DNA of 17,610 nt from an uncultured Pseudomonadota bacterium (lineage in GTDB: Bacteria; UBA10199; GCA-002796325; 1-14-0-20-49-13). Below are positions 6,065 to 8,833 of this stretch, one piece after another. How positions within the stretch are numbered: position 1 is the stretch's first letter; the number at the start of each line of letters is the position of its first letter. The notes beneath the pieces are model-generated. The model ran no database searches. It was given only the letters and a program-made list of their open reading frames with translations, and was not told the origin of the DNA. Both the position numbers and the translations under genes were made by a program. Where the stretch lies: NCBI GenBank assembly GCA_964612405.1, contig CAZTCA010000016.1, positions 1-17,610 on the forward strand, read 5' to 3'.

Positions 6065-6286
6065 CTAATTTGAAGGGGTGGTGCATTCTGTTTTACAGAT
6101 CCATGCATCACCCTTTCTTTTTGCGAAATCCTTGTAGATATAAGTATTACAATTGTCGCATTTAACCATCTCGTTCAGTAATTTCTTCTGTTCTTCTTTA
6201 GCAGGCCGCGCCATCGGGTTGAACATTTTTTTAAACATTCTCCAGATCATCAAAAACAATACTCCAAGAAGAATAAAACGTAGCAT
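6065..6286 (-). CDS. Small membrane-anchored Zn-ribbon-like protein (73 aa)
   Basis: N-terminal hydrophobic helix (LRFILLGVLFLMIW) followed by basic residues (positive-inside, so C-terminus is cytoplasmic) and a CxxC-x17-CxxxC cysteine quartet (CDNC...CKTEC). GAGGG lies 8 nt upstream of the ATG. It starts 19 nt after the stop of the upstream FG-GAP gene, so it is probably operonic. Confidence 0.5.
   Translation of the reverse strand: MLRFILLGVLFLMIWRMFKKMFNPMARPAKEEQKKLLNEMVKCDNCNTYIYKDFAKRKGDAWICKTECTTPSN
6075..6122 (+). terminator. Predicted intrinsic terminator for the nuo/SPFH transcript
   Basis: GGGGTGGTGCAT (6075-6086) pairs with ATGCATCACCC (6103-6113) as an 11-12 bp stem with one G.U and a 16-nt loop. 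TTTCTTTTT follows on the + strand (6114-6122). It lies 14 nt after the SPFH stop and overlaps the 3' end of the convergent minus-strand small gene. Confidence 0.5.
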
Positions 6287-6305
6287 TCCTTAAACCCTCA
6301 AGTAA

Positions 6306-6782
6306 TTACTGATTTAATAGTATTGTGGTATAACCACCTTCAGGATTTGCACTATTGCATGCCGCGATATCAATGTCGCCGTCGTTATCAAAATCTCCCG
6401 CAACTATGCCAAACGGTCTTCCATCTTCAACATTTGTGTCATAATAAGAGGGTGATGAGAATGCCCCATCACCATCTCCTACAAATACTGATATTGTGGT
6501 TCCTATACCGTCAATGCCAAAATTTGCAACCGCCAGATCCGACATTGCATATGTGACTGTAAAATCAGGCGTGGTTCCGTCTTCCTCAGCGCAGGCAGGA
6601 ATTGTAATTTCGCCGAGCGTCAAACCAGGTACAATACCATAGGCATTATTAGCTGCTACGGCGGCCCTGATAGCGGCGGTTGTGGGGGCTGAAAGTGTTT
6701 GATTCAACAAATCGTCTGAACTGCAATGAATACTCAAGGCCGCGGCAGATGCCGCTAGAAAGAGAAGGGCGGGCCTCTTCAT
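6306..6782 (-). CDS. Secreted FG-GAP / Ca-binding repeat protein (158 aa)
   Basis: N-terminal signal peptide (MKRPALLFLAASAAALS). Two FG-GAP/VCBS-like repeats with Asp-rich Ca-binding loops (FVGDGDGAF; VAGDFDNDGDIDIAA). AAGGGGG SD 5 nt upstream. 9-nt gap after the ATP-grasp gene. Confidence 0.7.
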   Translation of the reverse strand: MKRPALLFLAASAAALSIHCSSDDLLNQTLSAPTTAAIRAAVAANNAYGIVPGLTLGEITIPACAEEDGTTPDFTVTYAMSDLAVANFGIDGIGTTISVFVGDGDGAFSSPSYYDTNVEDGRPFGIVAGDFDNDGDIDIAACNSANPEGGYTTILLNQ

Positions 6783-6791
6783 AATACCCCC

Positions 6792-7814
6792 TTATTTATA
6801 CGTCTTGTTTAAGCCTAAATTAACAATCTTTTGTAGCAGTTTTTCAAAAGGAAGTCCCGCCTTTTCAGCGGATAGGGCAAAGTCCTCATCTGTGCAAAGA
6901 TCGGGATTCGGATTTGCCTCGATAAAGACGACCTGATTTGTAGGTGTCAAGCGAAGATCCATTCTGGCGTAACCGTCAATCTTCAAAATTTTATATGCAC
7001 GTTTGCACATGTTTAGAACATGTTCTTCAATATCTTGGTCCAAATCAGCGAACCGATATCTGATTCCCCATTTTTTACGATAGTCCTTATCAAATTTAGT
7101 TTTATATGTCGCAAAGGCGTTATTTCCGTTTGGAAGATTGCCGAATGTCACCTCACGAATCGGAAATGCCCGAATGCGTTTATTGCCCAAAATGCTTACA
7201 TACAACTCTCTGCCCGGGATGAACTGTTCTACAAGTGCCGCATCGCCAAACTTTTCATGAATAAATTTTACTCTTTCATAGAGCGCCTCTTCTATTTCAA
7301 CAAGAGATGCCTGTGAGATCCCCTGGGAGGCATCATCATTCGCAAGCTTAACAATGCAGGGGAGTTTGACTCGCGGTGACAGTGGTTTTTTCTCGCCCAC
7401 TCGGAAAACCGTGAAGGGCGGATTTTTTATTCTGTGAAATGAGAGAAGCTTTTTAGATAGGGCCTTGTGTCTGCAGAGCATCAGGCCGTTCGGACCGCAC
7501 CCCGTGTATGGGATATCCATCATCTGAAAGAGCCCCACAACGGCTTTATCCAGATGCCCTTTGCCGCCAAAATGCTCGGTCAGATTAAAGACAATGTCCG
7601 GCTGGAGATTTTTGACGGTTTTATATAAAAGATCTATCTCCTCATAAATTCCAAGGGTGTGAACGTCGTGCCCCATCTTTTTTAGTGTTCTAATGACATC
7701 GGCCTCCGTCTGCCATTCTTCAGTCTTCAGTTCAGCACTGAAATCCTGATCCTCCGGAGGCGTTCCCGCGGTGTCGAACAAGACCAGTATTTTAAGGGTT
7801 CTTTTTGCGGACAT
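6792..7814 (-). CDS. ATP-grasp ligase of the D-Ala-D-Ala ligase (Ddl) family
   Basis: 340 aa. Ddl-like N-terminal domain (KILVLFDTAG...EHFGGKGHLDKAVVGLFQMMDIPYTGCGP...CRHKALSKKLL). C-terminal ATP-grasp Mg-binding signature (ARMDLRL...VVFIEANPNPDL matches the Ddl R-x-D...E-x-N motif). Its start overlaps the upstream 151-aa gene by 23 nt. Confidence 0.85.
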   Translation of the reverse strand: MSAKRTLKILVLFDTAGTPPEDQDFSAELKTEEWQTEADVIRTLKKMGHDVHTLGIYEEIDLLYKTVKNLQPDIVFNLTEHFGGKGHLDKAVVGLFQMMDIPYTGCGPNGLMLCRHKALSKKLLSFHRIKNPPFTVFRVGEKKPLSPRVKLPCIVKLANDDASQGISQASLVEIEEALYERVKFIHEKFGDAALVEQFIPGRELYVSILGNKRIRAFPIREVTFGNLPNGNNAFATYKTKFDKDYRKKWGIRYRFADLDQDIEEHVLNMCKRAYKILKIDGYARMDLRLTPTNQVVFIEANPNPDLCTDEDFALSAEKAGLPFEKLLQKIVNLGLNKTYK

Positions 7815-8247
7815 TTTTAAACCTGCCTGTTGATAAATAGTTCATTGCAAGTGTATTTACATATGCCGTTAGCTGAAGAAGAGCGGTATTTTCTTCAGTG
7901 TATCTGTATAATTTCATCTCCCCGGCCGTTTTAATTAAATCGCTCATTAATTCATTGATCAAATAATTGTTTTTGCCGATCCACATGCCTATAGAATTGA
8001 CAATATTTCTTCTATACCTTTTTATAAAGGTATCTGCACGTTCAATTTTCCCCTGGCCCTCGATCTCTTTGAAAATTCTCTTGAGGTCCGGGCTGAAAAA
8101 GCCTGGAAGGTTTTCTGCAAACTCCCGCCGCTTTTTATTATAATAATATCCGAGCGTCTGGCCAAGCCTGTCCACCGACCAATATTTTTTGTTGCTTGTC
8201 ACCGGCGGTGGCTTGTTTTTTATTTCAGACATCAAATGGTCATACAT
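7792..8247 (-). CDS. Hypothetical protein (151 aa), basic and aromatic-rich, no recognisable motif
   Basis: ORF whose start overlaps the stop of the upstream HExxH gene by 8 nt and whose stop overlaps the ATP-grasp start by 23 nt (translational coupling). I could see no conserved motif. K/R/Y/N-rich. Confidence 0.5.
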   Translation of the reverse strand: MYDHLMSEIKNKPPPVTSNKKYWSVDRLGQTLGYYYNKKRREFAENLPGFFSPDLKRIFKEIEGQGKIERADTFIKRYRRNIVNSIGMWIGKNNYLINELMSDLIKTAGEMKLYRYTEENTALLQLTAYVNTLAMNYLSTGRFKNVRKKNP

Positions 8248-8833
8248 ATTCCAGTTTTGAAAGAGCCTTTTTCCAACCTTTGTAGACCTCTTTCCAATTT
8301 GAGTCCGGAGTCAGCCACACCGCAAATGTCTCGGCAAAATCTTCATCCGGATGATACTGTGCATAGCAATTATCTAAATGACGGACAAATCTTCTGCTAT
8401 ATGGTCTCGGCACATATGTGTCCGGATAATCCTTTGTAAAATCACCAAAAAGCGTTTTCCACTCACGTTTTTTGTGCAATTTATAGGCATAGTTGTAGAC
8501 ATGTCCGGTTTCGTGTCGCATGAGTTGAAGAAATTCTTCTTTTGTTTCACCCTCTACTTCTAAAATCATCTCCATTTCGAGTTTTTTCAGACGCGGATGG
8601 GCAAGATAAAAAGGAATTCCTATGATCGGTTCTTCGTCCGGGCAGAGCCATTCGTCCGCAAGATAATAGGGTGGCTTAAAGATAAGTTCCTTGGAATCGA
8701 GCTCTTGATGAACAATCTGCACATATGATTCGAGCGGTGTTTCCTGGATTGAGAGCCCCAAATCTTTTATTCTGATCTTCAGGAGACTTTCGTTATCAAG
8801 TTCGGCCCATTTTAGTTTAGACATTGGAGGCAT
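8240..8833 (-). CDS. Zincin-like HExxH protein (putative metallopeptidase/amidase), 197 aa
   Basis: Contains HETGH followed 9 residues later by H and KKREWK (HETGHVYNYAYKLHKKREWKTLF). This resembles the HExxH...H zinc site of SprT/WLM-like minimal zincins. Acidic DEDFAE lies ~50 aa downstream. It is the first gene of the minus-strand cassette, downstream of an AT-rich divergent promoter region. Confidence 0.65.
   Translation of the reverse strand: MPPMSKLKWAELDNESLLKIRIKDLGLSIQETPLESYVQIVHQELDSKELIFKPPYYLADEWLCPDEEPIIGIPFYLAHPRLKKLEMEMILEVEGETKEEFLQLMRHETGHVYNYAYKLHKKREWKTLFGDFTKDYPDTYVPRPYSRRFVRHLDNCYAQYHPDEDFAETFAVWLTPDSNWKEVYKGWKKALSKLEYV

Follow-up and report, generated by a model that had tools for sequence, protein, structure and literature searches.

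Amide ligases of the ATP-grasp fold are known to work alongside hydrolases in several systems, such as glutathionylspermidine synthetase/amidase from E. coli, cyanophycin synthetase and cyanophycinase, tubulin tyrosine ligase and its carboxypeptidase, and RimK with its partner protease. Neighborhoods of ATP-grasp and peptidase genes have also been predicted as a class by comparative genomics, and the comparative genomics of ATP-grasp amidoligases in particular was reportedly treated by Iyer et al. in 2009. Here we describe a gene pair that may follow a similar logic, an HExxH zincin followed by an ATP-grasp ligase, in a 17,610-nt stretch of DNA from an uncultured Pseudomonadota bacterium (contig CAZTCA010000016.1; the whole stretch is called the window below). 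The likeness to the established couples, an ATP-grasp amide ligase linked genetically or physically to a hydrolase for the same bond or molecule, is one of logic only. The hydrolases of those couples (CHAP, serine, M14, and retropepsin types) differ from the zincin family of this pair, and their substrates are known.

The conserved unit consists of two genes, one for an HExxH zincin of about 340 residues and, following it, one for an ATP-grasp ligase of about 340 residues from the Ddl clade. A scan anchored on the zincin, with an alignment of 25 zincin sequences as the query and one genome per species, returned at least 590 confirmed stretches, and neighborhoods were counted in the best 80 of them. 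In 74 of these 80 loci, the ATP-grasp gene follows directly downstream in the same orientation, and four of the six exceptions are contig ends. In the opposite direction, a ligase-anchored scan of metagenome loci found the zincin gene directly upstream in 72 of 73 informative cases. The spacer between the two genes has a median length of 21 nt and does not exceed 60 nt in 118 of 146 gaps. The first-pass annotation of the window had proposed that an HExxH hydrolase and a Ddl-like ATP-grasp ligase belong together. This neighborhood link is real, being conserved in both scan directions and in at least 13 phylum-level groups (Omnitrophota, Planctomycetota, Verrucomicrobiota, Methylomirabilota, Myxococcota, Bdellovibrionota, Acidobacteriota, Nitrospirota, Gammaproteobacteria, Dormiibacterota, Auribacterota, Brevinematales, and FCPU426). 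A homology search with the zincin adds Elusimicrobia. Some carriers have very small genomes, for example, an Omnitrophota chromosome of 1.27 Mb, and no plasmid copies of the module were found. An exhaustive profile search collected 920 zincin clusters (50% identity) at E ≤ 1e-30. The searchable literature, a coverage that does not extend to Iyer et al., contains no characterized member of the pair, which agrees with the earlier statement that no characterized enzyme matched.

The pair also appears to be self-contained. Clustering of all neighboring open reading frames (ORFs) yielded no third conserved gene, and any candidate for a conserved small ORF beside the pair occurs in at most 13 of 146 loci. 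Three loci inspected singly show the same picture of a zincin, then an ATP-grasp gene, and otherwise unrelated neighbors. The neighbor clusters that do recur were rejected as partners; they are generic response-regulator or ABC-ATPase families at variable positions, or artifacts from antisense ORFs. In one distant locus (L004, 4566–6769), genes for NfeD and Band_7 proteins lie directly upstream of the zincin gene on the same strand. We discarded a link between these families and the pair: since a Band_7 homologue was found by tblastn in only 1 of the 80 loci, this adjacency is probably a coincidence. With moderate confidence, the best overall explanation is that the window carries a conserved, self-contained two-gene operon for a ligase/hydrolase couple, with the zincin gene split in this particular organism. 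The conclusions on the anatomy of the locus are held with high confidence. The features of the pair in the window are the following.

8240–8833, minus strand: 197-aa ORF in frame -3, including a premature TGA
8243..8833, minus strand: 5' piece of the split zincin gene, frame -3, with the complete catalytic domain (197 aa, or 194 aa from the second ATG)
8501..8515, minus strand: HExxH zinc-binding and catalytic motif (HETGH, aa 107–111), located in the sequence
8312..8365, minus strand: family signature YAQYHPDEDFAETFAVWL (aa 157–174), nearly all positions invariant in the 25-sequence alignment
8240..8247, minus strand: frameshift junction ATGTATGA, with an extra T (~8242) after the Val codon GTA and before the Asp codon GAC
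7792–8247, minus strand: 151-aa ORF in frame -1
7792..8241, minus strand: 3' piece of the split zincin gene, frame -1, with the C-terminal helical domain and a basic tail (36–56% identity to homologues)
6792–7814, minus strand: 340-aa ORF for the putative Ddl-clade ATP-grasp amide ligase, overlapping the end of the zincin gene by 23 nt

The first-pass annotation had counted five genes in this region and treated the 151-aa ORF as a separate gene and third partner. The five minus-strand ORFs are indeed present at the coordinates given there (in an ORF scan, neighboring ORFs overlap by 8 and 23 nt or are separated by 9 and 19 nt), but they represent four genes. The 197-aa and 151-aa ORFs make up a single gene of about 340 codons with a one-nucleotide insertion, because homologues of about 340 residues align across both ORFs, in two frames. 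Homologues of the 197-aa ORF are nearly all 335–345 residues long, and tblastn of full-length homologues against the window places residues 1–194 in frame -3 (8824..8243) and residues 195–343 in frame -1 (8241..7795). A word-indexed homology search with the 151-aa ORF, which depends on shared 5-mers, retrieved a single near-identical protein only. At the junction, the sequence reads CTG GAA TAT GTA T GAC CAT, so that the inserted T creates the in-frame TGA that ends the 5' piece. The closest available intact relative (L007, about 70% identity) reads GTA|AAC at this position, without the extra T. Since the ATG of the 3' piece overlaps the premature TGA (ATGTATGA), translation of this second piece by termination-reinitiation is probably still possible, and both pieces may be produced in the window organism.

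Sequencing or assembly error can be dismissed as the source of the frameshift, because three other near-identical assemblies from ENA, Logan, and JGI samples (L001, L002, and L003) share the split. All three align with the window without gaps and have the identical indel state at 99.7–99.96% nucleotide identity, with 1 to 22 mismatches; one of them differs by 22 mismatches over 7.7 kb. Among 154 homologous loci, the zincin reads as a single full-length frame in 137, is cut by contig ends in 15, and is frameshifted elsewhere in 2; the gene is thus intact in 137 of 139 complete loci. The two shifted copies (L107, 5052–5986; L112, 2–921) are on metagenome contigs, have their breaks at positions unlike that in the window, and may be pseudogenes or reflect errors in sequencing. 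For the window zincin, public gene calls use the second ATG as the start (8824; 194 aa, P0121), while the first ATG, 9 nt upstream (8833), gives 197 aa; the N-termini of homologues are compatible with either start.

The zincin resembles known metallopeptidases most clearly around the active site. Profile searches confirmed the domain guesses made for four of the five ORFs, namely Peptidase_Mx/HExxH, Dala_Dala_lig_C, FG-GAP_3, and a small protein with a transmembrane helix and cysteines. Membership of the zincin in Peptidase_Mx (PF15887) is nevertheless marginal. The 197-aa piece scores 38.3 bits against a cutoff of 27 and covers only profile positions 84–164 of 236, and full-length homologues score 26–30.5 bits. 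In a comparison with this family, exemplified by BACCAC_01431 from Bacteroides (PDB 4l7a), only some 75 residues surrounding the active site are matched by the Pfam model. Within this region, H104, E105, and H108 (P0122 numbering) are invariant in the alignment of 25 homologues. The signature reads YAQxHPDEDFAETFAVWL across the family and includes a Tyr seven residues upstream of a Glu. It also holds the probable third zinc ligand, a Glu assigned by analogy with M34 gluzincins. A structural search with the predicted model found M34 and Peptidase_Mx types as the nearest folds, and the zincin is M34-like in fold only. A search for a solved structure with the zincin profile against PDB sequences gave only spurious matches.

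Two features set this family apart from its Peptidase_Mx/M34 relatives, namely the near-obligate linkage to an ATP-grasp gene and a family-specific C-terminal domain of about 150 residues with a basic tail at its end. The latter is helical in the AlphaFold2 model, and no convincing structural neighbor of this region was found. The relatives, including anthrax lethal factor and the Pro-Pro endopeptidases PPEP-2/3, are secreted proteins or lipoproteins. In contrast, the zincin is probably cytoplasmic, because no signal peptide or lipobox is visible in its sequence by eye; by the same inspection, no signal peptide is evident in the ligase.

The second enzyme of the pair has an ATP-grasp fold with Ddl-type N-terminal, central, and C-terminal domains, and matches Dala_Dala_lig_C with 95.4 bits. 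As noted in the first-pass annotation, the Mg-binding R-x-D...E-x-N motif is intact (R284/D286 and E299/N301), and the ATP and Mg residues are present. These features are shared with Ddl and VanA-type ligases, while the D-Ala-site residues and loops differ. Ser150 of the D-Ala site is replaced by Ala in 18 of 18 aligned ligases, Tyr216 by Trp in 17 of 18 (Phe in the window copy), and Ser281/Leu282 at the D-Ala2 carboxylate site by Asp/Glu in all 18. The GGxSxE loop of Ddl gives way to a longer FDxAGxPPxDQDF...W..E loop, and a conserved basic insert of about 15 residues occupies the omega-loop region. The scores of the window protein, 127.7 bits against a cutoff of 243 (NF002378) and 122.3 against 245.65 (TIGR01205), are about half of every Ddl/Van cutoff in NCBIfam. 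The protein is not an orthodox Ddl, as had been suspected, since the defining features of that family were tested and are absent. Judged by sequence, the 340-aa protein appears to be a catalytically intact ligase of the Ddl clade with a specificity other than D-Ala-D-Ala, and the Asp/Glu pair found where Ddl binds the D-Ala2 carboxylate would point to a nucleophile that is cationic or has no carboxylate.

The genomic setting of the ligase also differs from that of Ddl. Ddl genes lie in or near murein clusters, whereas this ligase family is nearly always paired with the zincin instead. The earlier remark that the window ligase is not beside murein genes is correct, its neighbors being nuoLMN, Band_7, ald, phoRB, and pst genes. 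Moreover, no third gene recurs beside the pair in the best 80 of the at least 590 loci.

How might such a pair work? The tight linkage in both directions, together with translational coupling, argues that the two enzymes act on one molecule. We tentatively propose, with rather less than even confidence, a cytoplasmic amide ligase/hydrolase couple for a peptide or amine substrate. The first gene would provide a cytoplasmic HExxH gluzincin of about 340 residues, with an M34/Peptidase_Mx-like catalytic domain and the family-specific helical C-terminal domain. The second would provide a Ddl-clade ATP-grasp ligase of similar length (about 340 aa), translationally coupled to the zincin. This ligase would convert a carboxylate into an acyl-phosphate and join it to an amine other than D-alanine. 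The zincin would act on the same molecule by cleaving a peptide or amide bond in it, and could thereby reverse or limit formation of the ligase product or trim a precursor. The ligate/trim logic put forward in the first-pass annotation would thus be plausible, though for this two-gene core only. Since no substrate gene is linked to the pair, the substrate should be a common cellular molecule (a cytoplasmic peptide, a protein terminus, or a metabolite) or the zincin and ligase themselves. A more specific version, which is speculative and which we consider doubtful, would be a system that reversibly attaches amino acids, or a cationic amine, to a common cytoplasmic protein or peptide, either at its C-terminus or on a side chain; the basic C-terminal tail of the zincin itself would be one possible target. 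On this equally speculative view, the pair would be a prokaryotic counterpart of the tubulin tyrosination and RimK cycles and a previously unrecognized system spread over more than 12 phyla, including genome-reduced Omnitrophota.

Some observations weigh against the two-gene couple. No zincin–ligase fusions occur among the best 150 zincin family representatives, all of which are shorter than 460 residues. Solo genes exist, although they are rare: a zincin on a Planctomycetota chromosome (L048, 7941–8999) and an ATP-grasp gene on a metagenome contig (L089, 3218–4240), whose partners may lie elsewhere in those genomes. The alignment of the ligase is ambiguous around DdlB E15, for which the invariant Glu37 may be the counterpart. 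Finally, the frameshift breaks a helix predicted over residues 185–201 of the intact zincin, and the assembly L001 carries the end of an insertion sequence (IS) or miniature inverted-repeat transposable element (MITE) 20 nt upstream of the ligase start (~7834), within the last 14 codons of the zincin gene. Because of the frameshift and this element end, the module may be decaying in this lineage rather than working. On this account, which is somewhat unlikely though we take it seriously, the frameshift inactivates the zincin, and the ORFs still look intact only because the event is recent. The position of the break within the helix and the element end in one population fit such decay, as do the fixation of the frameshift in four assemblies, the rarity of broken copies among complete homologous loci, and the existence of two more frameshifted copies in raw metagenome contigs. 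Against this stands the state of the 3' piece, which carries no marks of decay. It runs for 149 codons downstream of the frameshift without a stop, the first piece holds the full catalytic domain, and only 1 of 69 family-conserved positions is changed in the window, with no excess change in either protein. The ratio of C-half to N-half identity to relatives (0.75–0.90) lies inside the range among intact pairs (0.73–0.91). In addition, the stop and an ATG share nucleotides (ATGTATGA), and the zincin end still overlaps the ligase start by 23 nt, as it does in L007. The open and well-conserved downstream frame would also suit recoding as in prfB, in which a programmed +1 frameshift at GUA UGA C would give full-length zincin; the shift is in the +1 direction, and the C after the in-frame UGA makes this a weak stop. 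We consider this very improbable, since the site is not conserved: 137 homologues have a single frame, two others are shifted elsewhere, and L007 reads straight through. Furthermore, a slip from GUA to UAU offers tRNA-Val no re-pairing, and there is no strong upstream element resembling a Shine-Dalgarno sequence.

The remaining alternatives concern what the ligase makes and which genes take part. The closest folds and sequences of the ligase are Ddl, VanA, and VanG, and a ligase next to a zinc hydrolase recalls vanA–vanX, where one enzyme makes D-Ala-D-X, a depsipeptide or dipeptide, in place of the normal product, which the other destroys. A cell-wall system of this type is very improbable given the low NCBIfam scores and the replacement of Ser150, Tyr216, Ser281, and Leu282. 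Moreover, the zincin is an HExxH gluzincin and not a VanX-type M15 enzyme, and mur, van, or two-component genes are not consistently linked to the pair. A pathway for peptides that are made on the ribosome and then modified post-translationally (RiPPs), of the graspetide type, or a carrier-protein pathway of the LysW/LysX type, would require a small linked substrate peptide, and we regard this as the least probable of all alternatives. RimK–S6, LysX–LysW, and graspetide systems have a linked gene for the substrate, precursor, or carrier, whereas the pair has neither a conserved third gene nor a conserved small ORF, and the structural similarity of the ligase to RimK, LysX, and graspetide-type ligases is lower than that to Ddl. 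The first-pass annotation had itself proposed a five-gene tagging cassette, with the 151-aa protein as a third partner and two small downstream products as substrates or cargo. These two genes are the following.

6306–6782, minus strand: 158-aa ORF for an FG-GAP-repeat protein (FG-GAP_3 match)
6065–6286, minus strand: 73-aa ORF for a PP0621-family small protein (NCBIfam NF041023 match)

The first product matches FG-GAP_3 with 31.2 bits (cutoff 26.9) over one stretch, aa 82–140, and has a signal-peptide-like N-terminus with a cysteine at position 20. The second matches NF041023 with 47.1 bits (cutoff 45) over 66 of 73 residues and combines an N-terminal transmembrane helix with a four-cysteine ribbon (Cys-x2-Cys...Cys-x3-Cys); a literature search on the PP0621 family found nothing relevant. 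A five-gene cassette is consistent with the tight arrangement of the ORFs, which all lie on one strand and either overlap or are separated by very few nucleotides, and with intergenic gaps devoid of terminator-like sites, which makes co-transcription plausible. Still, we give this proposal almost no credence, because the 151-aa ORF belongs to the zincin gene as its C-terminal half, and the FG-GAP and PP0621 proteins have homologues in 0 of the 160 related loci covered by the neighbor screens (zincin-anchored genome and ligase-anchored metagenome loci together). Such homologues are missing from L007 as well, where the intact pair is followed by a different gene on the opposite strand. The FG-GAP gene has a strong ribosome-binding site (AAGGGGG) of its own, and two cytoplasmic enzymes are unlikely to act on a protein that is exported or sits in the membrane. 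Both small genes are lineage-specific passengers outside the conserved module which share its strand and possibly its transcript. The link between ligase and hydrolase that was first noticed here is thus real and uncharacterized, while the cassette built around it was over-extended.

If the two-gene couple works as proposed, the Ddl clade of ATP-grasp enzymes would gain a new substrate specificity, and the pair would provide the first functional context for a cytoplasmic branch of the little-understood Peptidase_Mx/M34-like zincins. Characterization of one pair would annotate roughly 900 or more protein clusters (50% identity) per partner. Two points concern existing annotations: ligases of this family are routinely mislabeled as "D-alanine-D-alanine ligase", and the zincin of the window organism is deposited as two separate hypothetical proteins. 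The result for the window itself is more modest, namely a frameshifted and possibly partly disabled copy of the module with two unrelated neighbors.

The module is flanked by ordinary chromosomal genes, nuoL/M/N and Band_7 upstream and ald, phoR/phoB, pstSCAB(B), and phoU downstream. The earlier placement between the complex I genes and ald holds, except that the region does not directly abut complex I, because a plus-strand Band_7/SPFH gene (5222–6061) lies between nuoN and the cassette. Its end and the convergent PP0621 gene lie 3 nt apart. No compositional anomaly was detected across the window, no Rfam family or riboswitch matched it, and the PADLOC models for anti-phage defense gave no significant match to the four window proteins.

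A MITE-like element is active or polymorphic in this population, because L001 and L002 differ from the window at element ends. One copy, about 149 nt long and bounded by 27-nt terminal inverted repeats (CTAGGAGCCTGTCGGGAAAT...), is situated between ald and phoR (10114–10262), and a second copy of its end (17548–17610) runs off the 3' end of the window. Similarity to L002 (1–1140) stops at window position 10116 and is followed by a gene for an IS1595-family transposase, and in L001 (836–932) the junction with the same element end falls at window position ~7834, within the last 14 codons of the zincin gene. Farther downstream, the pstSCAB–phoU operon contains tandem pstB paralogues (15288–16118 and 16120–16866), of which the second exceeds the TIGR00972 cutoff (374.7 against 343.2 bits) and the first falls below it (311.6 bits).

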